Assembly: GCA_031555055.1 (NCBI GenBank)
Contig: JAVBUT010000002.1
Coordinates: forward strand, 210,165-274,164
Direction of reading: 5' to 3'
Source: Alphaproteobacteria bacterium
GTDB lineage: Bacteria; Pseudomonadota; Alphaproteobacteria; Rs-D84
DNA: 64,000 bases
Under the pieces are notes generated by a model, which worked only from the letters and a program-made list of their open reading frames with translations, had not been told where the DNA came from and did not search any database. Shown here piece by piece: positions 1,795-53,826 of the stretch (positions within the stretch are counted from its first letter, which is position 1; the number at the start of each line of letters is the position of its first letter). A program made the position numbers and the translations under genes.

Positions 1795-3411
1795 ATGCGT
1801 AATGGCTTATCATCAGATTTAATTGCGCGCATATTGGGCGTGGCGCCAAAGTACACGATTGCGGAACTGGAACAAAAATTCCCGCCGCGCAATCTGCCGG
1901 ACGGCGCCATGGTGACCCGTGCGGCGCCCAGCCCAACTGGATTTATGCATTTAGGGAATTTGTACAGCATGCTGATTGATAAAAAGCTGGCCCAGCAATC
2001 GCACGGCGTTTTTATGCTGCGTATCGAAGATACCGATACGGATCGTGAAATCCCCGGTGCGGTCGATACGATTTTGGACATTGTTGAAAAGTTTAGGCTG
2101 GATATAGACGAAGGTGTTTTAAAAACCGGATTGGAAAAAGGCGCGTATGGGCCGTACACGCAATCACAACGCAAGGAAATTTATCATTCTGTGGCCGCCG
2201 AACTGTTGGCGACAGGCCGCGCGTATCCGTGCTTTTTGACATCGGATGAAATGAATGAAATTCGTGAAACACAAACCAAGGCCGGCATGCCGACCGGAAT
2301 TTATGGCGAATTCGCACGTGACCGGGATATGATGCCGGATGAAATTATTGCAAAAATTGATGCGGGCGTGGTGCCGTCGGTTCGTCTGTATTCGACAGGT
2401 GATCCATCCAAAAAGATTTTTTGCAAGGATGTTGCGCGCGGCTCAATCGCATTCCCGGAAAACAACGACGACGTGGTTTTAATAAAATCAAATGACGGAT
2501 TGCCGACATATCATTTTGCGCACTTGGTTGATGATCATTTTATGCGTACGACGAACGTTGTTCGCGGTGGGGAATGGTTGGCCTCGCTGCCGCTGCATAT
2601 TCAGATGTTCAATATGATGGGCTGGGCCGCGCCGGCGTATTCGCATACGGCGACAATTGACAAAATAGATGATGAGACAGGCAAACAGCGCAAATTATCC
2701 AAGCGCAAAGACCCCGAATCCAGCGTCGCGAACTTTATAACCGAAGGCTGGCCGATAGAGGCCGTATTGGAATACCTGTTCAATCTGGTGGCCAGCGGGT
2801 ATGAAGAAGAAAAAGTTAAAAATCCGTTGATGACCATTTGGGATTATGATTTAAAGTTAAAAAAATTATCGACCAGCGGTGCTTTGTTTGACTGGAAAAA
2901 GCTGGAATGGTGGGGAAAAGAATTTATTGCGACACTGCCGGTGTATGATCTGGTCAATCGCGTAATGGAATGGGTGCACGAATATTCGCCCCAGTGGCAT
3001 GAACGAATCGGGGACAAGATTGATTATCTGACCAAAATTTTGGCGATCGAACGCGATAATCCGAAACGTGTCCGCAAGGACTTTGTCACATGGAAGCAGA
3101 CATTGGAAGAAGTTGCATATTTCTTTGATGATATTTTTGAAAAATCAGAAATCGGAAATCAAAAATCAGAAATTAATAAAAATGCGCTGGATGCATTCCT
3201 GCGCGGGTTTGAATGGACTGACGACAAAGACACATGGTGGAATAAAATTGTAAAAATAGCGTCCGACATTGGTACTAAAAACGGCGATGTCGCGATGAGT
3301 TTGCGCGTCGCGTTAACCGGGCGCACAAACACACCCGATCTTTATTCGATCATGCAGGTCATGGGCGGTGAAAGGGTGATAAAACGCATAGGCAAAATTA
3401 TCAATGGTTAA
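1795..3411 (+). CDS. gltX: glutamate--tRNA ligase (class I, GluRS/GlnRS family)
   Basis: HIGH-type motif PSPTGFMHLGN and KMSKS-type motif KLSKRK. RBS AAGGAAAG upstream. In-frame heptamer insert at 3141-3177 encodes EKSEIGNQKSEI. Confidence 0.85.
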   Translation: MRNGLSSDLIARILGVAPKYTIAELEQKFPPRNLPDGAMVTRAAPSPTGFMHLGNLYSMLIDKKLAQQSHGVFMLRIEDTDTDREIPGAVDTILDIVEKFRLDIDEGVLKTGLEKGAYGPYTQSQRKEIYHSVAAELLATGRAYPCFLTSDEMNEIRETQTKAGMPTGIYGEFARDRDMMPDEIIAKIDAGVVPSVRLYSTGDPSKKIFCKDVARGSIAFPENNDDVVLIKSNDGLPTYHFAHLVDDHFMRTTNVVRGGEWLASLPLHIQMFNMMGWAAPAYSHTATIDKIDDETGKQRKLSKRKDPESSVANFITEGWPIEAVLEYLFNLVASGYEEEKVKNPLMTIWDYDLKLKKLSTSGALFDWKKLEWWGKEFIATLPVYDLVNRVMEWVHEYSPQWHERIGDKIDYLTKILAIERDNPKRVRKDFVTWKQTLEEVAYFFDDIFEKSEIGNQKSEINKNALDAFLRGFEWTDDKDTWWNKIVKIASDIGTKNGDVAMSLRVALTGRTNTPDLYSIMQVMGGERVIKRIGKIING

Positions 3412-3452
3412 ATTTATACATCATGCCGGTGCAAACAAAAAGGGAAGGAGAA

Positions 3453-4205
3453 ATGGTTAAAAATAAAAAAGTCGCAAGACAAAAATTAAAAGAAGTGAAA
3501 AAAGACGATCGTGCTTGGGGCCTGTTGAAGGTTCTGCGCGCGACCGGGTTGTTCCGCTGGGAACGCGAATCGACCAAATCGGAATGGGTATTGGATGTTC
3601 TGACGCATGGGATCGGAATCGGTCTGGCGATCGCGGGTCTGACACTGTTGGTGGTGTTCGCGGTTCTAAAAGGCGATCCTTGGGCGGTGACAAGCTGTGC
3701 GATTTTTGGTCTTACCATGTTCACATTATATTTCGGATCGACGATGTGCCATGTGTCGATTGGGCAAAAATCTGAATGCTTTTTCGAAGTCTGGGATTCG
3801 GTCGCGATATATGCGCTGATCGCGGGAACATACACGCCGTTCCTGTTGGTTAATCTGCGCGGGCCGCTGGGCTGGACAGTGTTCGGCATACTGTGGGCGA
3901 TCGTGATATTCGGCGCCGTTATGAAAATAAAGTCACCACGCCGCCAGCCGAAATGGATGGTCGTGCTGTATCTGGTCATGGGCTGGACAATGGTGTTTAT
4001 TCTGCCCGCGATGATCAAATATATCCCTGTGCGCGGCATGTGGTGGATATTGGCGGGTGGCCTGTCGTATTCATTGGGTGTTATATTCTATATGTGGCGC
4101 AAGATGAAGTATTCGCACGCGATCTGGCATCTGTTTGTGATAGGTGGATCGGTATGCTTCTTTTTCGCGGTCCTGTTTGGATCAATAATTGATTATGTCG
4201 GATAA
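3453..4205 (+). CDS. hemolysin III family (HlyIII/PAQR) membrane protein
   Basis: Seven predicted TM segments. Conserved motifs EW..DVLTHGIG, CHVS, AGTYTPF and HAIWHLFV. GGAGG RBS at 3445-3449, ATG at 3453. Confidence 0.8.
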   Translation: MVKNKKVARQKLKEVKKDDRAWGLLKVLRATGLFRWERESTKSEWVLDVLTHGIGIGLAIAGLTLLVVFAVLKGDPWAVTSCAIFGLTMFTLYFGSTMCHVSIGQKSECFFEVWDSVAIYALIAGTYTPFLLVNLRGPLGWTVFGILWAIVIFGAVMKIKSPRRQPKWMVVLYLVMGWTMVFILPAMIKYIPVRGMWWILAGGLSYSLGVIFYMWRKMKYSHAIWHLFVIGGSVCFFFAVLFGSIIDYVG

Positions 4206-4210
4206 AAAAT

Positions 4211-4241
4211 AAAACCGCTGAAACAGCGGTTTTATTTTTTT
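4211..4241. terminator. bidirectional rho-independent terminator between convergent genes
   Basis: aaaaccgctgaaacagcggtttt hairpin flanked by A and T runs. Confidence 0.7.
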
Positions 4242-4246
4242 ATGTT

Positions 4247-4920
4247 TTAACGTCCTGCTTGCCCAACACGTGCGACACCAGAACCAAATTTAAAAACGTG
4301 CTTTTCCATTTGTTCTTTGAATATGGATATAACACATTGTTTGTGAATGTCTGCGCACGCTTCGGTCAAGTTTCCAATGGTTGAAAAGAAGTCGCCTTTG
4401 GTTCTAATTGGTTTTCCATGCCATTCATCGTCCAATGCGATAATTCGATTTTGATGTGTATAACAGCCTTGGTGCATGGCGTCATCGTTTTGTTCTGTCG
4501 GTACAATAATATATGGTTTTTCGTGTCTGTTTACATAGGTGGCGATTTTTGATCCCGCACCGTTCAGATATAATGGTCCCATTGGAAAGCACGGATAGTA
4601 CAGCGAATGTATCCCAAAATTATCGAACACAATGTTAAGCGTGGATTTTTCGTTAATCTTGCACAATGGCCCCAAATATGTGTCTTTCTTGTCAACAAGG
4701 ACATCAAACTTGATGGCTTGCGCGGTGTCTATTCTGTACATGAATATGGATTTGTCGGATTTTATTTTATCGAACAGAGCGTTCGCGCTCTTGAATGTTT
4801 GGTATTCGGTAAATTCGGCATCTTTTTTTTCATCGTACTTGTGAAAGACGACAGGGATATTGTGCAAATTTATCTTTGCTTCGATACTTTTGTGCCCGAT
4901 TTCTGTTAAGTGTATTTTCA
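4247..4920 (-). CDS. hypothetical protein, AT-rich orphan gene (start at MKIHLTEIG)
   Basis: About 224-aa ORF at about 36% GC. ATG at 4918-4920. No recognisable domain. Confidence 0.45.
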
Positions 4921-5216
4921 TGATTATTCTCTGTTTTTGGTTTTGGTAATATAATACATTAGTTGTATTTGTCAATAATATTATATACAGCACTTGATTT
5001 TTAAATTCATCACAGGTATAATTCGTGTGTTATGAAAAAATTGTTTGTTATCTTTACAACAACTACAACCCCTTTGGGGTGCTAGAATTCTATTGCGGTT
5101 TTTCGCATAAACTTTATAATTAATCAAAATAAAAATGAAAAAGTGTAAGTGAAAGTGCAGGTGAAGGCATCCGCCATACCAACGCGAATCACAGACACGA
5201 ACACGAAGGTTTTAAA

Positions 5217-6965
5217 ATGTCAGATAAAGATAAAAAATATCCAATCGAACTGGTGCGTCACAGTCTGGCGCACGTATTGGCGGCGGCGGTTCAGAAACTG
5301 TGGCCGGATGTAAAATTCGCGGGCGGGCCCGATATTGAAAACGGATTCTATTACGATTTTGATACCGATCATCGTTTTTCGGAAAGTGACTTTCCGGCAA
5401 TCGAAAAAGAAATGAAGGCGTTGATCAAATCGGATGGAATGTTCGTTCGCCGTGAAGTCTCGTTACAGGAAGCAAAAGAAATATTTGCGGCCCAACCGTT
5501 TAAAATGGAATGGCTGAACGAATATGACGCGGCAGGTGAAAAATTGTCGATCTATGAATTCCGTGGATTCGTGGACTTGTGCCGTGGGCCGCACGTAGAA
5601 TCATCCAAAGATTTGCCACGCGACGGATTTAAAATCCGCAGCGTTGCCGGTGCATACTGGAAAGGTGATTCCAAAAACAAAATGTTACAGCGTATCTATG
5701 TCGATGCATTTGCGTCCGCCGATGAACTGGACGCGCATCTGAAAATGATGGAAGAGGCCGCCAAGCGCGATCATCGCAAGATTGGCCGTGATATGGACTT
5801 GTTCCATTTCGAACCGGAATACGCGCCGGGCGCCGTGTTCTGGCACGATAAAGGTTATAAGATATATCGCCGTCTGATCGAATATGTGCGTATGCGCCAG
5901 GAAAAAGCCGGCTATTTGGAAATTTCAACCCCGGGGCTGATGGACCGTTCTTTGTGGGAAACGTCAGGCCACTGGGCGAAATATGGCGAACATAATTATT
6001 CCGGCAAGACCGAGGACGGTAAGCAGTTCTGTATAAAGCCGATGTCTTGTCCGGGCGGTATGCTGGTGTTTGGGCATGGTCTGACTTCTTATAAAGACCT
6101 GCCGATGTATGTCGCCGAATTCGGAAAAGTTCATCGGTACGAAGCCGCCGGTGGCTTGCACGGTATCATGCGTGTGCGCGAATTCACCCAAGATGATGCG
6201 CATATATTCTGTACGGAAAACCAGCTGGAAGATGAAGTTGTAAAGATTCTGCGCTTTATCAAAGATATTTATGGCAAATTCGGGTTCAAAAACGTCACCA
6301 TGAAACTGGCGACGCGCAAAGAATCGGAATTCCGTATCGGATCGGATGAAATATGGGATCGCGCCGAAGCCGCGCTTAGAAACGCGCTGGATAAAAACGG
6401 TATTGAATACGAAATCGCCGTTGGTGACGCCGCTTTTTATGGGCCCAAGATTGACAACTATCTGCGCGATTCGATCGGCCGCGTATGGCAGTGCGGAACA
6501 GTCCAGCTGGATATGAATCTGCCGGAACGCTTTGACTTGTCCTATATCGGCGAAGATGGTGAAAAGCACCGTCCGATTATGTTGCATCGTGCAATGCTGG
6601 GGTCGATTGAACGTTTTATGGGGATATTGCTGGAAGAGACCGGTGGAAACCTGCCGCTGTGGCTGTCGCCGGAACCGGTGGTCGTAACCCCGATTTCCGA
6701 AAAGTACAAAGACTATGCGGTCGAAGTGTACGACATGCTGCGTCATGCGGGCGTTTATGCGGGCCGCGATTTGCGCGACGAAAAAGTCAATTACAAGATT
6801 CGCGAACTGTCGCTGGCCAAGACGCCGATCATCGCAGTCGTAGGCGAGAAAGAGCAGGCGGATAAAACCGTAACTTTGCGCTGGCTGGGGTCTGATCAGC
6901 AAGACACAATGTCGCTGGATAAATTCATCGACATGATGAAGTCCGCAGTCCAAATGCCAGAATAA
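5217..6965 (+). CDS. thrS: threonine--tRNA ligase, apparently lacking the N-terminal TGS domain
   Basis: Begins at the editing-domain motif RHSLAHVLAAAVQKLWP and GFYYDFD. Class II catalytic and anticodon-binding regions follow. 582 aa versus about 640 in canonical ThrRS. Confidence 0.9.
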   Translation: MSDKDKKYPIELVRHSLAHVLAAAVQKLWPDVKFAGGPDIENGFYYDFDTDHRFSESDFPAIEKEMKALIKSDGMFVRREVSLQEAKEIFAAQPFKMEWLNEYDAAGEKLSIYEFRGFVDLCRGPHVESSKDLPRDGFKIRSVAGAYWKGDSKNKMLQRIYVDAFASADELDAHLKMMEEAAKRDHRKIGRDMDLFHFEPEYAPGAVFWHDKGYKIYRRLIEYVRMRQEKAGYLEISTPGLMDRSLWETSGHWAKYGEHNYSGKTEDGKQFCIKPMSCPGGMLVFGHGLTSYKDLPMYVAEFGKVHRYEAAGGLHGIMRVREFTQDDAHIFCTENQLEDEVVKILRFIKDIYGKFGFKNVTMKLATRKESEFRIGSDEIWDRAEAALRNALDKNGIEYEIAVGDAAFYGPKIDNYLRDSIGRVWQCGTVQLDMNLPERFDLSYIGEDGEKHRPIMLHRAMLGSIERFMGILLEETGGNLPLWLSPEPVVVTPISEKYKDYAVEVYDMLRHAGVYAGRDLRDEKVNYKIRELSLAKTPIIAVVGEKEQADKTVTLRWLGSDQQDTMSLDKFIDMMKSAVQMPE

Positions 6966-7316: not shown

Positions 7317-8027
7317 ATGAACAATAATGACGAAAGCTTGGACTTGTTGGACTTGGAAGATGACGCTGGTTTGGACAATCTGCCGGAATCCAGCCCATTT
7401 ACACAACCGCGCCCGAAAAAGCCTTGGCTGTTGCTGGGGGTTGGTTTGCTGGTCATCGCCCTGGCGACGTATATAATAATCCGTGTTGTCGGGTCTGATT
7501 CGGAATCATCGGTTGAAATCGATCTGGATGCGCCGGCTGTTGTAACAATTGACGGCGAAGCGGGAACAGTAACCGACACTATCGTCGTTCCGCCGCAACC
7601 GGTTCAGCCCCAGCCCGTGGTATCCCAGCCCCAGCCGGCACCTGTGCAGGCAACGCCTGGTGTTCCTGTGCGCGAAGTAAAAGACCGTCCGGCGACAACA
7701 TTTGACCCGGCAAAGCCTGTGGCGACCAAACCGGTCCAGACAGTAAAACCGAAACCGACTGTCAAACCAAAGGCAAGCGCGGCCGGATCATGGTATGTTC
7801 AATTCGGATCGTACAGCACGCGTGCATTGGCTGAATCCGCCCAGAAAAAGATACATGCTGGACACAGTGGCCTGTTCGCGGGCAAACAATTTGTAATTCT
7901 GGCCGCGGTTCTGCCGAATGGGACGACCACGTACAGACTGCGCATTGCGTTTGCGACATCGAATGATGCAAATGGATTCTGCCGCAATGCCAAATCCGAC
8001 GGATTGGATTGTTATGTAGCAAGATAA
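7317..8027 (+). CDS. SPOR-domain cell-division/peptidoglycan-binding protein (DedD/FtsN-like)
   Basis: N-terminal TM segment, Pro-rich linker and C-terminal SPOR signature WYVQFGSYSTRALAE...YRLRI. Confidence 0.7.
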   Translation: MNNNDESLDLLDLEDDAGLDNLPESSPFTQPRPKKPWLLLGVGLLVIALATYIIIRVVGSDSESSVEIDLDAPAVVTIDGEAGTVTDTIVVPPQPVQPQPVVSQPQPAPVQATPGVPVREVKDRPATTFDPAKPVATKPVQTVKPKPTVKPKASAAGSWYVQFGSYSTRALAESAQKKIHAGHSGLFAGKQFVILAAVLPNGTTTYRLRIAFATSNDANGFCRNAKSDGLDCYVAR

Positions 8028-13840: not shown

Positions 13841-15607
13841 TTGAGAAAGATAGTAGAAAGATCCATGCTGGGCAAAGCGTGGGTTTGCGCGACAGAGTAT
13901 GAAGAAAACACGCCCAGCAGTACGATTTTAAAAGAAGACTTGTTAAAGAAAATATTGGAATCGCGCGGCGTTCGTAGCGGGGTCGATACCAGCAAGTTTT
14001 TAAATCCCAGCATAAAAGAATACATGCCCGACCCCAGCGTGCTGGCCGATATGGATTCGGCGGCGCGTATAATTGTCGACAATATTGTCGCCGGGCGGAA
14101 AATTGCCATATACGGCGACTATGACGTGGACGGAATAACGTCCAGTGCGATCATGGTGAAATATCTGCGTGCGGTTGGCGCAAACGTCGTATGGCACCTG
14201 CCAACGCGCGAAGGCGAAGGGTATGGTCTGAACTGTGATGCCGTCAGTGCGATCGCCGCGGACGGGGTCAATCTGATCGTGACCGTCGATTGCGGAATCA
14301 GCGGCGTGGAAGAAATTGCGCTGGCTAAAAAACTGGGGCTGGATGTCGTTGTTACCGATCATCATTCGCCTGACGGGAATCTGCCGGCGGCCGACGCGGT
14401 CGTGAATCCCAAACGCCTGGACGATACGTCCGGGATGTCTTATCTGGCGGGTGTCGGCGTGGCTTTTATGACACTGGTCGCCGTGAATAGAGAACTGAAG
14501 TCCAGAAATGACGATAAATTCCAAATTCCGCATTCTTTATTTTTGATCGATCTGATGGATTTGGTCGCGCTGGGGACGATATGCGACACAATGCCGTTGG
14601 TGGGACTGAATCGTGCGTTTGCTGCGACCGGCCTGAAAGTTCTGGCCAAGCGAAACAATGTCGGCCTGCGCGCGTTGATGGATATTGCAGTAATTAAATA
14701 GCAGACCAAATACAGCGTGATGTTCGCGCTGGGGCCGCGGTTGAATGCGGCGGGCCGTCTGGATTCTGCGGCGCCGGCGCTGGAACTGTTGTTGACGGAC
14801 AATATACTGGTCGCGAACGATCTGGCGGCAAAATTAAACCGCATGAACCAGGAACGCATAGATGTTCAAAATGCAATCATGATAAGTGCGACCGAAATGG
14901 CCCAGAAATGTTGCGCTTTGGGAAAATGCAGCCTGTTCGTATGTGGCGATAACTGGCGCACTGGGGTTATGGGGATCATCGCCGGGCGGCTGAAAGACAA
15001 ATATAACCTGCCGACATGTGTTGCGACGAAATGCGACGGCGTGATTGACGGGTCCGGCCGTTCTATACCGGGCGTCGATCTGGGGCGCATTGTCCATGAT
15101 GCGGCGGCATTGGGAATAATCAGCGGCGGCGGCGGCCATGCGGCGGCGGCCGGGTTTACTTTGCCGGCAGAGAATGAACAGAAATTCTGCGAATTTTTGG
15201 AAAAATCCGTCTTGGCGCAGTTGGATGGGAAAATTCCGGAAAACGAAACGGTTGTTGATGCCGAAATGGATGCCGGTGGCGCAACGATGAAGCTGGTGGA
15301 ACAACTGGCGGAACTGGAACCGTTCGGCCAGGCCAATCCGGAACCGACACTGGTACTGCGTGGCGGGACATTGGCCCACGCGACGATAATGGGCAAGGGC
15401 GGAACGCACTTGCGCGGATATATCAATACAGGCAACGGATCGCGCCTGGCGTTTGTGGGATTTAATATGGTCGGGACGCCGGTCGGTGATTTTTTGCTGG
15501 ACGATGCGCATACAAATACTAAAATGATGATGTTGGGAAAGTTAAAGGAAAACGAATACCAAGGCCGCGTATCGGCACAGTTCATTTTGGAAGACTTGGC
15601 AATTTAA
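13841..15607 (+). pseudogene. recJ: recJ single-stranded-DNA exonuclease interrupted by an in-frame TAG at 14699-14701 (two ORFs 13841-14701 and 14717-15607 in the same frame)
   Basis: DHH motifs (YGDYDVDG, DHH) in the first part. Conserved FALGPRLNAAGRL and DHHA1 region in the second part. The frames are identical and separated by a single amber codon. Confidence 0.6.
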
Positions 15608-20518: not shown

Positions 20519-21082
20519 TCAGTTGCGAAAGTCACAGTCAATCAGATGATCATTCACATATCCGGTCGCCTGCAGGTGGGAATAGCATATGACAGTGCCA
20601 AAAAACTTAAACCCGCGCTTTTTCATGTCGTGCGCGATCGTATCTGACAATTCAGAACGTGCAGGGATGTCGGCCAGTGTCTTGATATTGTTTATAATCG
20701 GCTTTCCGTTCGGCAAAAACGATTTTATATAATTACAGAAACTGCCGAATTCTTTTTGCACTTTGATAAAGAGTTTTGCATTATTGATCGTGGCCATGAT
20801 TTTCAGACGGTTGCGAACAATGCCGTCGTCGTTCATCAGGCGCGCGACATCGGAATCAGTGAACTTGGCGACTTTGTCCACGTCAAAATTCGCGAATGCG
20901 CGCCGATAGTTTTCACGCTTGCGCAATATTGTGATCCAGGACAGTCCGGCTTGGGCCGATTCCAGTGTAAGAAATTCAAACATTGTTTTGTCGTCAGTGA
21001 CCAGTTTGCCCCATTCGGTATCGTGATATTTGATATACAGCGGATCATTCCCGCACCATCCACAGCGTTTTGTCTGTTTCAT
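20519..21082 (-). CDS. tag: DNA-3-methyladenine glycosylase I
   Basis: RCGWCGNDPLYIKYHDTEWG and ESAQAGLSWITIL signature. Zinc ligands C..C...H...C present. Confidence 0.85.
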   Translation of the reverse strand: MKQTKRCGWCGNDPLYIKYHDTEWGKLVTDDKTMFEFLTLESAQAGLSWITILRKRENYRRAFANFDVDKVAKFTDSDVARLMNDDGIVRNRLKIMATINNAKLFIKVQKEFGSFCNYIKSFLPNGKPIINNIKTLADIPARSELSDTIAHDMKKRGFKFFGTVICYSHLQATGYVNDHLIDCDFRN

Positions 21083-21145
21083 AATGATTCCTTCTTTATA
21101 ACCCCCAGTATATCAGAAATAAAATGCCCGCAAGGGGCATTTGAT

Positions 21146-21180
21146 TTATGGTGGTGGGGGATATTACACAATTATCGAAC
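21146..21180. repeat. att-like direct repeat R1 (hairpin + ttatggtgg...attatcgaac); copy of R2 at 21781
   Basis: ttatggtggtgggggatattacacaattatcgaac preceded by hairpin aaatgcccgcaaggggcat. Same architecture as the tRNA-Lys 3 prime end plus terminator at 23050-23085. Confidence 0.5.
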
Positions 21181-21269
21181 TTCGCCAAAAGGCTTCGTAC
21201 GACAAGTCGAACTAATTTCCCAAGAAAATTTCTTGGTTTGGTTCATAAAATCAGATAATTTAAAAAAAA

Positions 21270-21719
21270 TTAACCCCGCCCCATACCTTTCCACGCATCG
21301 GCATATTTTTTATTTTTCCATTCTTCAACAGTGTTTCCTGCTTCTAAAAAATTAAACATTTCATATTTTTTCTTTTCAGCCAATTCTTGACTATTTCCAC
21401 CATTATCTACGAAATGATTCAACAATATCATAACATCATTTTCTGGAACATGAAGCGCATACCAAAATACAGATGTATGTCGTTTATTGTCATAACATGG
21501 CATCTTATCACACATTTTACGCCAATTTCTGAAACAACAGGACGAGCAACTGCTAACGCCTATGTTATCATCATTGTCCCACATATTCACAGAAGCGCAA
21601 ACATTGTTTTCAATTGAACGCTCTTTTAAATAAGATGGAATATTTTTCATTTTGCACCTGTTTTTTGAATAATAGTTCGATAATTGATAAAAGACAATAT
21701 TTTTATTAAAACACATCAT
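21270..21719 (-). CDS. hypothetical Cys-rich protein, AT-rich islet gene
   Basis: 149-aa ORF at about 33% GC, between att-like repeats R1 and R2. Confidence 0.4.
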   Translation of the reverse strand: MMCFNKNIVFYQLSNYYSKNRCKMKNIPSYLKERSIENNVCASVNMWDNDDNIGVSSCSSCCFRNWRKMCDKMPCYDNKRHTSVFWYALHVPENDVMILLNHFVDNGGNSQELAEKKKYEMFNFLEAGNTVEEWKNKKYADAWKGMGRG

Positions 21720-21780
21720 CTAACCGGTCAAAGAGCGTGCGAATACAAAGAAAAACGCACCCGTAACAGGTGCGTGTGTT

Positions 21781-21821
21781 TTATGGTGGGGGATATTACA
21801 CAATTATCGAACTAATTTCCC
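21781..21821. repeat. att-like direct repeat R2
   Basis: ttatggtgggggatattacacaattatcgaactaatttccc preceded by hairpin aaacgcacccgtaacaggtgcgt. Confidence 0.5.
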
Positions 21822-21893
21822 GGGTGAGTTTGTTGAATTAGTAAGAAAGATATAAAACTTTATAAATAAAAATTAATATGTTACAATTCAATC

Positions 21894-22973
21894 ATGATTC
21901 TTCTAGACTATAATATTCTTGAACAAAAGAAAAACACTTTGGATAAAAAAGTGTTCAAAAAATTACAAAAGAAAGCGGATGAAGCACTATATGCTAAAAA
22001 TGAAACGATTTTAGATTTTCCAGGCTTTCCGAAAGATAAAAAAGATTATTATAGCCTGGCTGCGTATTATCATAAATCACCAGACGGAAAATACATTAAG
22101 CATGATGGTATATATAACCAAGAATCACGTAATGGCCCCAAGGATGTTATGTCGCGATTAACGGATGATGTATTGATTCTTGCTTTGGCTGGGTACTTTA
22201 TTGATAAAAAATATTCCGCACGTGCCGCAGAACGCCTTTCTGCTTGGTTTTTGAGCCCAAACGGCATGAATCCAAACTTAATCTATGCCCAGGCCATACC
22301 GGGCAATGATATTGGACGTCCTGCTGGAATTATTGATGCTCATCACTGGATAAATATTATAACGGCGATTGATTTAATTGAACTTGTAATAACAGATAAT
22401 AAATTTCTGACAGAAATGAAAGAGTGGTTTGGTAAATTTGCGGATTGGTTGCATACCAGTGATAATGCCAATAATGTCCGTGAAATCGGAAATAATATTA
22501 ACGCGTGGAGAAATACGGCAACGCTTGTATTTGCATTATTTGCTGGTAATCGGGATAAAATTGTTAATAAATGTTATGATGAATTTAAAGATATATTAGA
22601 ATCAAAGACTGATGAACAAGGGTGCTTTGTTAGTGAATTAGATAGAACAAGATCATTACACTATAACCTATTTTTTCTTGACGCTATGGCCGTTGCGGCC
22701 GAGGCAGCATACAATCAAGGTATTGATCTTTGGCACTATTTTTCGCCAACGAAAAAGAACATAGAAAATTCATTTGATTTTCTGGGGCAATTTTTGATGG
22801 GCAAACCATGGCCGTATCCACAAATGACGGAAGAGTTTAAGAAACGAAATTCTTTTTATATTGCTGCGGTTCGCTTGAATCGACCCGATTTTATAGATAT
22901 TAATCAAGGGCTTGTGGATAATACTTGGCACGCGCACCTTGGTCCAGCTTGGCTATGGCATGGCGAACATTAG
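21894..22973 (+). CDS. polysaccharide-lyase-like protein (alginate lyase / heparinase II/III-like fold), AT-rich islet gene
   Basis: 359 aa. Motif region RSLHYNLFFLDAMAVAAEAAYNQGIDLW resembles the alginate-lyase NNHSYW core. About 34% GC. Adjacent to tRNA-Lys. Confidence 0.4.
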   Translation: MILLDYNILEQKKNTLDKKVFKKLQKKADEALYAKNETILDFPGFPKDKKDYYSLAAYYHKSPDGKYIKHDGIYNQESRNGPKDVMSRLTDDVLILALAGYFIDKKYSARAAERLSAWFLSPNGMNPNLIYAQAIPGNDIGRPAGIIDAHHWINIITAIDLIELVITDNKFLTEMKEWFGKFADWLHTSDNANNVREIGNNINAWRNTATLVFALFAGNRDKIVNKCYDEFKDILESKTDEQGCFVSELDRTRSLHYNLFFLDAMAVAAEAAYNQGIDLWHYFSPTKKNIENSFDFLGQFLMGKPWPYPQMTEEFKKRNSFYIAAVRLNRPDFIDINQGLVDNTWHAHLGPAWLWHGEH

Positions 22974-23080
22974 TTCGATAATGGATGATTTTTGGTGTTT
23001 TTGGAAAAACACATAATCGAACTCACCCAAGAGCATGTAAATCCAAAGAAAACCGCCCTTTGCGGGCGGTCAGTGTTTCA

Positions 23081-23156
23081 TGGTGGACGAGCAGGGACTC
23101 GAACCCTGGACCCACTGATTAAGAGTCAGTTGCTCTACCAACTGAGCTACTCATCC
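23081..23156 (-). tRNA. tRNA-Lys (anticodon CUU)
   Basis: Cloverleaf read from the reverse complement: GGATGAG/CTCGTCC acceptor stem, D-loop AGTTGGTA, anticodon loop CTCTTAA, T-loop GGTTCGAGTCC, CCA encoded. Terminator hairpin at 23052-23070. Confidence 0.9.
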
Positions 23157-30613: not shown

Positions 30614-30689
30614 GGCTGGGTAGCTCAGTTGGTAGAGCAAGGGACTGAAAATCCCTGTGTCGGCGGTTCGATTCCGTCCCCAGCCACCA
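30614..30689 (+). tRNA. tRNA-Phe (anticodon GAA)
   Basis: GGCTGGG acceptor, TAGCTCAGTTGGTAGAGC D-arm, anticodon loop CTGAAAA, GGTTCGATTCC T-arm, CCA encoded. Confidence 0.9.
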
Positions 30690-30892: not shown

Positions 30893-30935
30893 GAAAATCC
30901 CTGTGTCGGCGGTTCGATTCCGTCCCCAGCCACCA
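30893..30935 (+). repeat. direct duplicate of the 3 prime 43 nt of tRNA-Phe (anticodon loop to CCA); att-site remnant
   Basis: gaaaatccctgtgtcggcggttcgattccgtccccagccacca is identical to 30647-30689. Confidence 0.8.
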
Positions 30936-53256: not shown

Positions 53257-53826
53257 ATGTTTCTTATTAATAAATTAAAAAACAAAAAACAGCAATTGAT
53301 TCTAAATCAATTTTCAGAATATTTAATTTCTCATAGTCCAGTTTCTGAAAATTACCAAGGATTTATGGAAGAAGAGGATATTAAAAAATTTTTGCAATCA
53401 TTGGGAATGGTTGAAAAGATTAGACATTCTGAAACCTATGCGTATTCTGAAACTTATGAAGTAAACACTAAATTGGATACATACACTGTTGATCATAATG
53501 GGATTTATATTTGTGCCGGATCAAGTTGGATTTATGATGAAGAAGAACCAAACGCGCGCGTGCACATAAAGATAAGCCGGGGTGGTAAAAAAGTATTTGA
53601 ATCAGAATATTACGAACAAATGGGCTATGTTTATGCTACTCATGGTGTAATGAGCGAATTGTACAACGGTTTAAAGCAAACAAGGCCTTATTTTGATAAT
53701 TCCTTGGAAACATTAAAAGAAAAGCTTTCTAGGGCTGAAAAAGAAAAAGCCCTGATGGATATGAAGCTTATCAAACGGGAAATGAAAATTAAAAATCGCG
53801 AAATTATAAAAAAAATTCGTGGATAA
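53257..53826 (+). CDS. hypothetical protein, AT-rich orphan gene
   Basis: 189 aa, about 30% GC. Terminator hairpin at 53838-53872. No domain recognised. Confidence 0.4.
   Translation: MFLINKLKNKKQQLILNQFSEYLISHSPVSENYQGFMEEEDIKKFLQSLGMVEKIRHSETYAYSETYEVNTKLDTYTVDHNGIYICAGSSWIYDEEEPNARVHIKISRGGKKVFESEYYEQMGYVYATHGVMSELYNGLKQTRPYFDNSLETLKEKLSRAEKEKALMDMKLIKREMKIKNREIIKKIRG

Follow-up and report, generated by a model that had tools for sequence, protein, structure and literature searches.

A tandem pair of AT-rich single-gene units abutting the 3' end of tRNA-Lys in an uncultured alphaproteobacterium

The tag to tRNA-Lys interval and its counterpart in a relative

The stretch of DNA analyzed here (64,000 nt; positions 210,165 to 274,164 of contig JAVBUT010000002.1, assembly GCA_031555055.1, an alphaproteobacterium of the GTDB lineage Rs-D84), referred to below as the window, contains two AT-rich units, one of 632 bp and one of 1297 bp, between tag, the gene for DNA-3-methyladenine glycosylase I, and the gene for tRNA-Lys(CTT). 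Together these units form an insert of 1.93 kb, from about 21155 to 23086 (coordinates are positions in the window, and L-numbers denote the loci compared in other genomes), which is a tandem of two cassettes with one gene each (Table 1). Each unit opens with TGGTGG, which is complementary to the terminal CCACCA of the tRNA, and its gene lies, in either orientation, between a left end (LE) and a right end (RE). An initial annotation, made from the letters of the sequence alone, had proposed two AT-rich islets between tag and tRNA-Lys, and all of these features are present where it placed them.

Both cargo genes have a foreign composition. The Cys-rich gene of the first cassette has a GC content of 0.341 and a GC content at third codon positions (GC3) of 0.291, and the alginate-lyase-family gene of the second has values of 0.368 and 0.303. 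The corresponding values for the 44 other window genes are 0.480 +/- 0.043 and 0.539 +/- 0.068, such that both cargo genes have z of about -3.5 on GC3 (about 3.5 standard deviations under the window genes). Atypical composition had been part of the initial annotation, which gave the lyase gene a GC content of 34%; the measured value is 37%. The lyase scores 171.5 bits against PF05426 (curated cut-off 22.2), a profile match that places it in this family, and it also matches solved alginate lyases (PDB 3nfv, E = 4.5e-35). It has no obvious signal peptide.

The Cys-rich protein is an ORFan with only three close homologues. Its start at 21650, which gives 126 amino acids, is backed by the homologues and by gene calls, whereas 21270-21719 is the maximal open reading frame (ORF). 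The core of the protein reads CSSCCFRNWRK..C..PC, and a library-wide profile search among 1.84e9 proteins returned only nine representatives, all weak or short, which are short proteins with the common core CxxCCFRNW..C..xC. Profile searches against Pfam, PHROG, PADLOC, and PDB gave no match, and an AlphaFold model (predicted local distance difference test score of 44.5) was unusable. One Cys-rich homologue (60% identical) is found in a segment of ~680 bp that is common to two contigs (L003, 228-903; L004, 1348-2023) with different left flanks. The segment opens with a terminator hairpin followed by AGTTTGGTGG, and the palindrome at its right edge is broken in L003 by an IS30-like gene (HTH_38).

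The closest syntenic relative, L049 (a 257-kb contig of GCA_031554955.1), was found by a Tag search. The metagenome-assembled genomes (MAGs) of the window, L049, and a third locus, L022, all derive from one sample (SRR23967709). The gene order in L049 is GatA, tRNA-Phe, GatB, MiaB, a homologue of a 520-aa protein, small ORFs, tRNA-Lys, tag (83% identical to the window Tag and adjoining tRNA-Lys), and sodC, followed by LysM-M23, TatC, TatB, M23, LolA, and RecJ. Neither cargo gene is present at the tRNA-Lys locus of L049, such that the interval between tag and tRNA-Lys, for which a comparison across relatives had initially been proposed, is empty of cargo in this genome. In L049, a hairpin identical to T1 of the window is followed by TTTGGTGG and then by ACGCG... 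of tRNA-Lys; read in the orientation of the window, ...AATAAAATGCCCGCAAGGGGCATTTAATTATTTGGTGG is joined to ACGCGTAGGG..., which is T1 and then tRNA-Lys directly. The window counterpart of this junction reads ...AATAAAATGCCCGCAAGGGGCATTTGATTTATGGTGG joined to TGGGGGATATT....

Since T1 abuts tRNA-Lys in L049, T1 appears to be the native terminator of this tRNA gene, the insertion point is the CCACCA end, and the 1.93 kb between T1 and tRNA-Lys in the window is almost certainly an insertion. The initial annotation had treated the terminator as part of the repeated unit. This part of the description does not hold, as the three hairpins of the locus (T1, T2, and T3) are not copies of one another, and the comparison indicates that T1 is native and that T2 and T3 arrived with the cassettes. 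A terminator scan scores all three as intrinsic terminators on the strand of the tRNA (minus), and each is followed by ..TTYATGGTGG on the plus strand. T3 probably now serves as the terminator for tRNA-Lys.

Two further differences between L049 and the window were observed. L049 has ~135 additional nt between tag and T1 (7826-7960, minus strand). Within them are GGACGCGTAGGGATTC, which copies 16 nt of the 3' end of tRNA-Lys, and the perfect hairpin GATTACACA..TGTGTAATC. The segment looks like the scar of an older integration at the same hot spot. L049 also has a gene for a GMC oxidoreductase between tag and sodC, and the window does not.

Table 1. Features of the tag to tRNA-Lys interval in the window.
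Feature	Position	Strand	Basis or remark
tag (DNA-3-methyladenine glycosylase I), native left flank of the insert	20519..21082	-	PF03352, E = 3.3e-78
T1 hairpin, native; probable intrinsic terminator of tRNA-Lys, from which 1.93 kb now separate it	21122..21142	-	Terminator scan; AAATGCCCGCAAGGGGCATTT identical in L049
Junction 1, attL-like; TTATGGTGGTGG, native TGGTGG plus one additional TGG	21146..21157	+	Repeat families D4, D6
LE1, left end of cassette 1	21152..21262	+	Repeat family D3; nhmmer E = 2.9e-11 and 1.8e-7
Cargo 1, 126-aa Cys-rich ORFan, GC3 0.29	21270..21650	-	Maximal ORF extends to 21719
RE1, right end of cassette 1	21671..21789	+	Repeat families D1, D8, I9, I14; nhmmer E = 5e-31
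LE2, left end of cassette 2	21784..21893	+	54/56 identical to L022 LE
Cargo 2, 359-aa alginate-lyase-family protein, GC3 0.30	21894..22973	+	PF05426, E = 3.5e-50
RE2, right end of cassette 2	22969..23086	+	Repeat families D1, D8, I6; nhmmer E = 2.3e-33
tRNA-Lys(CTT), target gene	23081..23156	-	ARAGORN; Rfam RF00005, 73.4 bits; its 3' CCACCA supplies the TGGTGG of junction 3

Conserved cassette ends at two tRNA genes

The LE is ~110 nt long overall, with ~45 nt that are invariant (TGGTGGGGGATATTACACAATTATCGAACTAATTTCCCGGGTGA) and an AT-rich, promoter-like stretch next to them. LE1 and LE2 are the same over their first 30 nt, an exact direct repeat (TGGTGGGGGATATTACACAATTATCGAACT) at 21152-21181 and 21784-21813 that has an expectation of 0 in shuffled sequences and no third copy anywhere in the 64 kb. 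LE1 has a small hairpin at 21220-21236, and LE2 has a promoter-like TTTATA-17-TACAAT with TG (21859-21887) pointing toward the cargo. LE1 also has a 32-nt insertion (TCGCCAAAAGGCTTCGTACGACAAGTCGAACT, 21182-21213) between copies of a 7-nt repeat, TCGAACT; neither LE2 nor the LE of L022 contains this insertion, and the window has no second copy of it.

The RE (~118 nt) consists of inverted and direct copies of the 10-nt motif ATTATCGAAC, a terminator hairpin, and GTTTYATGGTGG. The motif is inverted at the start of each RE (21673-21686 and 22969-22982) and direct in each LE, with four matches vs. 0.44 expected. A degenerate direct copy is located in each RE within a 59-nt repeat of 75% identity (family D1; 21700-21758 and 22998-23056), which makes three copies per junction. 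Both this repeat and the ATTATCGAAC system had been missed by the initial annotation. In RE1, the inverted motif is TAGTTCGATAATTG and the degenerate direct motif is ACACATCATCTAAC, followed by the hairpin T2 (21755-21775) and the core GTTTTATGGTGG (21778-21789). In RE2, the inverted motif ATTAGTTCGATAAT overlaps the stop codon of the lyase gene, and the direct motif ACACATAATCGAAC precedes the hairpin T3 (23051-23071) and the core GTTTCATGGTGG. The hairpins are positioned identically in every RE copy but differ in sequence, which fits a structural role as terminators. The promoter-like sites in the cassettes point at the cargo, and the cassette ends may thus provide both promoter and terminator.

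The boundaries had initially been described as copies of the tRNA 3' end. This applies to TGGTGG(G) plus a few downstream bases, as the tRNA-derived part of each boundary repeat is only 6-7 nt, compared with the 20-50 nt of partial tRNA that are typical of tRNA-targeted islands. The remainder of the 30-56-nt repeat does not correspond to tRNA-Lys and is sequence of the element itself.

The same ends are found in L022 (GCA_031549365.1, 'Alphaproteobacteria bacterium EPI_MAG_00150'), which was recovered in a pattern scan with each species represented by a single genome. The LE of L022 contains TGGTGGGGGATATTACACAATTATCGAACTAATTTCCCGGGTGA and is followed by an AT-rich stretch with TTGACA-17-TATATA. 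The cargo is a 293-aa Cys-containing ORF that is unrelated to the window cargo and has no match in Pfam, PHROGs, or PADLOC. The RE includes GTTCGATAATGG, ACGCATTATCGAAC, CCCAAGAG.ATG.AAATCCAA, a hairpin, and GGTCAGTGTTTCATGGTGG, and it terminates in ...GGGCGGTCAGTGTTTCATGGTGG, of which the last 23 nt are identical to the window RE. This RE abuts tRNA-Val(TAC) rather than tRNA-Lys, and at the junction the two tRNA genes have in common only CCACCA and generic tRNA features. LE identity is 100% over the first 30-44 nt in all three cassettes and 96% over the first 56 nt, whereas any two of the three RE copies are about 70% identical, matching one another at nhmmer E of ~1e-31 to 1e-33. The coding DNA of tag, in comparison with the 96-100% identity of the LE core, is 69.5% identical between the window and the L022 genome. 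Judging from these identities, either strong constraint or conversion must be acting on the LE core.

A second type of cassette lies outward of the LE/RE cassette in L022. It contains a 224-aa ORF (GC3 0.22) and is bounded by CCCACCAGTATTCT repeats and a 131-nt repeat of 85% identity. One junction, AGAATACTG-GTGGGT-CAGTATTCT, is a perfect 9-6-9 inverted repeat with the tRNA-Val 3' end as the spacer, a layout that looks like the usual core site of a recombinase. The order of the two cassettes fits a process in which each newcomer lands beside the tRNA. In the same locus, a 350-aa ORF contains at its 5' end a (GT)n microsatellite (3290-3335), which is translated as HTHTHT... and is possibly a phase-variation switch beside the cassette array.

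These observations bear on one alternative, which is that nothing at the locus is mobile and that the two genes are native and locally AT-rich, accompanied by local duplication of the tRNA terminator, or else that they are transposons similar to miniature inverted-repeat transposable elements (MITEs) and bounded by terminal inverted repeats. Inverted repeats of 11-14 bp do flank each cargo gene (families I6 and I14), and relatives have native-GC lyase homologues, that of L041 being in the same neighborhood. However, the site is empty in L049, the cargo GC3 is 3.5 standard deviations under that of the neighbors, and the same ends recur at tRNA-Val in L022. Moreover, no target-site duplication is present outside the inverted repeats, the homology among cassettes runs past these repeats to TGGTGG, and no transposase is present. 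This alternative is therefore scarcely credible.

Proposed integration in trans and the competing explanations

The favored explanation, to which we assign a probability of about 0.6, is that the units are mini integrative cassettes without an integrase, similar to cis-mobilizable elements (CIMEs), and that they were inserted serially by a site-specific recombinase acting in trans. According to this model, the two cassettes entered in succession, precisely at the terminal CCACCA of tRNA-Lys(CTT). The RE-TGGTGG-LE arrangement, joined head to tail, would constitute an attP-like site on a circular form, with the ATTATCGAAC copies as putative binding sites of the recombinase and the crossover within or beside TGGTGG. 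A recombinase encoded elsewhere would join the site on the circle to the CCACCA end of the tRNA gene, each newcomer would land at the tRNA and push older cassettes outward, and the terminator carried by each cassette would replace the one separated from the tRNA. Because newcomers are expected next to the tRNA, the lyase cassette would be the younger of the two. As for the kind of recombinase, a tyrosine integrase is regarded as the likeliest, but with so short a common core a serine integrase would be as compatible as a heterology-tolerant tyrosine integrase.

The view first taken of this locus, that small foreign cargo was integrated serially at tRNA-Lys, is supported by the composition of the cargo, the empty site in L049, and the occurrence of the same ends at tRNA-Val in L022. 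Recombination in trans is the best supported mechanism because the insertions are precise at the same 6-nt core in two tRNA genes, the conserved ends contain a thrice-repeated 10-nt motif, the sister cassette type in L022 has the 9-6-9 palindrome, and the tandem order fits a tRNA-proximal site that was used repeatedly. The folding of the RE-LE junction and the integration hot spot at tRNA-Lys (both described below) count in favor of this mechanism as well.

Several points weigh against this explanation. The LE core (96-100%) is far better kept than the RE (~70%), and a simple recent transfer of whole cassettes does not account for this difference. Junction 1 has an additional TGG and LE1 has its 32-nt insertion. 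The tRNA identity of 6-7 nt is below that of typical tRNA-targeting tyrosine integrases, and the presumed overlap varies (GTGGGG in the LE, GTGGAC in tRNA-Lys, and GTGGGT in tRNA-Val). Only three such cassettes in two genomes are available, no helper element with LE and RE is known, and no circular junction or excised form was observed. Finally, each cassette has only one ORF, with no Phage_integrase match, and a Pfam comparison of 47 window ORFs (most ORFs of at least 180 aa) revealed neither a recombinase nor a transposase, which agrees with the remark in the initial annotation that no integrase is present. No recombinase was found in the 8 kb of L022 (ORFs of at least 90 aa) or in the 16-kb loci of L049 and L051 either.

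Searches for further copies gave the following results. LE-motif scans of 185,579 species genomes, a metagenome collection, and IMG/VR found nothing beyond the two genomes. The scan of the genome collection used ATATTNCACAATTATCGAA as the query and returned 27 matches, of which only L022 is real; L024, which does not have TGGTGG, is a doubtful candidate, and the other matches were rejected as chance matches with unrelated flanking sequence. The metagenome scan returned the contig of L006 (a locus described below) again and nothing else, and two scans of IMG/VR, one with the LE motif and one for the RE end (run in IMG/VR only), gave chance matches only, that of the RE end being in a coding region. 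Searches by nhmmer with LE and RE profiles against the loci compared here found no additional copies. A blastn search of the 2-kb region against plasmids and phages had no match, and Rfam (E <= 1, 18-26 kb) identified tRNA only.

Three candidate identities of the ends were dropped on inspection by eye. For a decayed tRNA 3' half or a tRNA-like minihelix, the LE has 5 nt too many between the T-loop-like TTCGA and CCA, and its stems are unpaired. An IS200/IS605-like origin is disfavored, as the sequences of the subterminal hairpins vary between copies and TnpA is absent. Compared with the E. coli dif site, the LE core has no convincing XerD arm.

A different explanation is that the scaffold arrived once and that its cargo was later swapped by homologous recombination in LE and RE following DNA uptake between co-resident relatives, in which case the individual genes would require no dedicated recombinase. 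The identity of the LE core across cassettes with unrelated cargo speaks for this explanation, the three MAGs come from one sample, and DprA and a secretin/TcpQ pilus, possibly competence functions, are encoded in the window. However, cargo swapping accounts neither for the first insertion nor for the presence of the scaffold at two tRNA genes with only TGGTGG in common. In addition, RE copies that are ~70% alike and LE copies of ~45-110 nt are poor RecA substrates. Cargo swapping is thus considered improbable.

Integron cassettes and clusters of attC sites lacking integron-integrases (CALINs) are composed of single-gene units of 0.5-1.3 kb in tandem, with a conserved, imperfectly palindromic site and a recombinase encoded outside the cassette. 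The cassettes described here are alike in their tandem one-gene units (0.6-1.3 kb), in having a conserved imperfect palindrome, and in having any recombinase outside the unit. An integron-like explanation would have the RE-LE junction act as an attC site that folds as a single strand, tRNA 3' ends act as attI, and an IntI-like enzyme be encoded elsewhere. The junction (~160 nt conserved) indeed forms, when folded, a long and imperfect hairpin whose outer stem measures 14 bp (z = -3.1), and its GTTCGAT and ATCGAAC are each one mismatch away from the consensus core sites GTTRRRY and RYYYAAC. Nevertheless, the junction reads GTTCGAT ... ATCGAAC, whereas the order in attC is AAC...GTT; the cassette boundary is TGGTGG and not G|TT; and the cargo is found in both orientations with promoter-like sites of its own. 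The window has no IntI, attI, or cassette promoter (Pc), and the array is bounded by tag and tRNA-Lys. Of the features of an attC site, only the imperfect palindrome is present, and an integron-like origin is very doubtful.

Among known elements at tRNA genes, the cassettes functionally match CIMEs, which keep attL and attR, have no recombination genes, and undergo accretion at the 3' end of the target gene (PMC5704250). The CIMEs related to ICESt1/ICESt3 in Streptococcus thermophilus and the composite islands at tRNA-Lys of S. agalactiae likewise stand in tandem at the 3' end of the target, without integration or transfer genes, and the cassettes retain ends with a putative attachment role. 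However, CIMEs are described as decayed integrative and conjugative or integrative and mobilizable elements (ICEs or IMEs) of several kb with longer target-matching attachment repeats, whereas the cassettes are 0.6-1.3 kb in size with one gene, ~110-nt conserved ends, and a core of 6-7 nt that is used at two or more tRNA species. No ICE or IME partner with LE and RE was found in the available sequence. Tycheposons of Prochlorococcus also bring cargo to tRNA genes, with successive integrations that push older ones outward and with common degenerate remnants, and their attachment sites are usually ~40 nt of partial tRNA (bioRxiv 10.1101/2020.12.28.424599). Unlike the cassettes, they encode a tyrosine recombinase and often replication genes. 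The cassettes have no recombinase and no long partial-tRNA repeats, take only TGGTGG from the tRNA, and have conserved ends that are not derived from it. Moreover, the cassettes differ from both CIMEs and tycheposons in carrying a built-in terminator that would replace the displaced terminator of the tRNA.

In tRNA-targeted islands, the partial-tRNA repeats are typically 15-60 nt long. The cassettes resemble such islands in being inserted at a tRNA gene, with an empty site in a relative, and differ from them in having neither an integrase inside nor a long tRNA repeat. The same applies to classical P4-type islands, which also insert 3' of tRNA genes and have a foreign composition, but which carry an integrase and leave 42-49-nt copies of the tRNA 3' half (anticodon loop to CCA).

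A broader and more tentative proposal, considered unlikely at present, is that LE and RE define an undescribed gene-cassette system with a dedicated recombinase elsewhere and serial capture, at the CCACCA ends of several tRNA genes, of single genes enclosed by the invariant 45-nt LE and the terminator-bearing RE, i.e., an analogue of the integron with tRNA termini as attI that is shared among co-resident uncultured Alphaproteobacteria. If the units are indeed mobile as single-gene cassettes, a minimal integrative element would consist of no more than one gene with its promoter and terminator, plus an attachment site; the carried terminator would repair the transcription unit of the target tRNA; and co-resident uncultured Alphaproteobacteria would exchange such units at several tRNA genes. 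The 45-nt invariant LE and ATTATCGAAC are handles for finding the recombinase and more cassettes. If the units are instead only decayed islands, the locus would be an ordinary tRNA-Lys hot spot, yet a clean and well-bounded one with an empty-site control.

Island remnants and related loci

The possibility of decayed islands is best considered together with L006 (GCA_003324335.1; threonyl-tRNA synthetase 83% identical), in which a lyase homologue (69% identical) also adjoins tRNA-Lys(CTT). On the tRNA-Lys side of this gene, 49 nt (4935-4983) duplicate the 3' half of tRNA-Lys and form one boundary of a later Fic island, whose other boundary is the full tRNA-Lys (6405-6480). On the other side are a tRNA-Leu(TAA)-like 3' half and a P4-type integrase gene that is frameshifted over three frames (2406-3614). 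Two classical islands flank the lyase homologue (2406-6480), which thus sits between two convergent tRNA 3' ends. The lyase gene is separated from the tRNA half by a diverged RE that comprises CACAATTATCGAAG, a hairpin, and GGGTGGTGG. Taken together with the 16-nt scar in L049, the islands of L006 make tRNA-Lys(CTT) an integration hot spot in this clade.

According to the decay explanation, the cassettes are products of larger, integrase-bearing islands, in the manner of classical CIMEs that formed by deletion, each being the attachment ends and one gene left over from internal deletions, and were never mobile as single-gene units. The degraded P4-type integrase right beside the lyase homologue and the 49-nt tRNA-Lys repeats in L006, the scars of classical islands at tRNA-Phe and tRNA-Lys in these genomes, and the documented formation of CIMEs by decay (PMC5704250) all point in this direction. 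However, the three LE/RE cassettes share a minimal design in which the ends abut a single ORF while the cargo is unrelated, and independent deletions are not expected to converge on such a design. Furthermore, the integrase remnant in L006 is tied to the tRNA-Leu 3' half and not to LE/RE, and the attachment identity of 6-7 nt differs from the 42-49-nt repeats that classical islands left in the same genomes. Decay of larger islands is regarded as unlikely, and integration of single-gene cassettes in trans remains the preferred explanation.

Lyase homologues are also found in two other relatives. In L041, a more distant but syntenic locus, a 48% identical homologue of near-native GC lies right after LysM-M23; there is no tRNA on this locus, and its DNA has no similarity to the LE/RE region. 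In L043, a 44% identical homologue of native GC is located beside tRNA-Thr. The initial annotation had stated that cargo genes at native GC without the repeat structure in relatives would speak against integration. Such genes were found for the lyase (44-48% identity, L041 and L043), and the L049 locus is empty. Since these homologues have native GC and no repeats, the lyase family is resident in the clade, and the window lyase is a foreign, AT-rich allele of this family in a cassette that L049 does not have. The genomes of L006 and L022 have lower GC, and their lineages are plausible donors.

Scars of classical islands were observed at tRNA-Phe as well. In the window, tRNA-Phe(GAA) (30614-30689) has a 42-nt direct copy of its 3' half ~200 bp downstream (30893-30934), which is the scar of a classical tRNA-targeted island. 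The same tRNA-Phe in L049 has a different scar, in which the direct repeat measures 65 nt or more and takes in the terminator.

With regard to tag, the window protein is 77-80% identical to Tag of Bacteroidota (Dysgonomonas and Prevotella), which is about as close as most alphaproteobacterial matches, and a cross-phylum transfer of this gene is possible. Another Tag homologue, in L053, has surroundings that are not syntenic.

Two other features of the window are of note. An ORFan of 189 aa on the plus strand (53257-53826), between a gyrB/parE-like gene and dnaJ, has a GC content of 0.31 and the lowest GC3 in the window (0.26); it has a TTGACA-type promoter-like site and a terminator of its own, with no LE/RE, no nearby tRNA, and no Pfam match. 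Finally, recJ (13841-15607) is split by an in-frame TAG at 14699-14701 (..AVIK*QTKY..), whereas its orthologue in L041 is a single 592-aa gene; the split gene could be a pseudogene or an assembly error.

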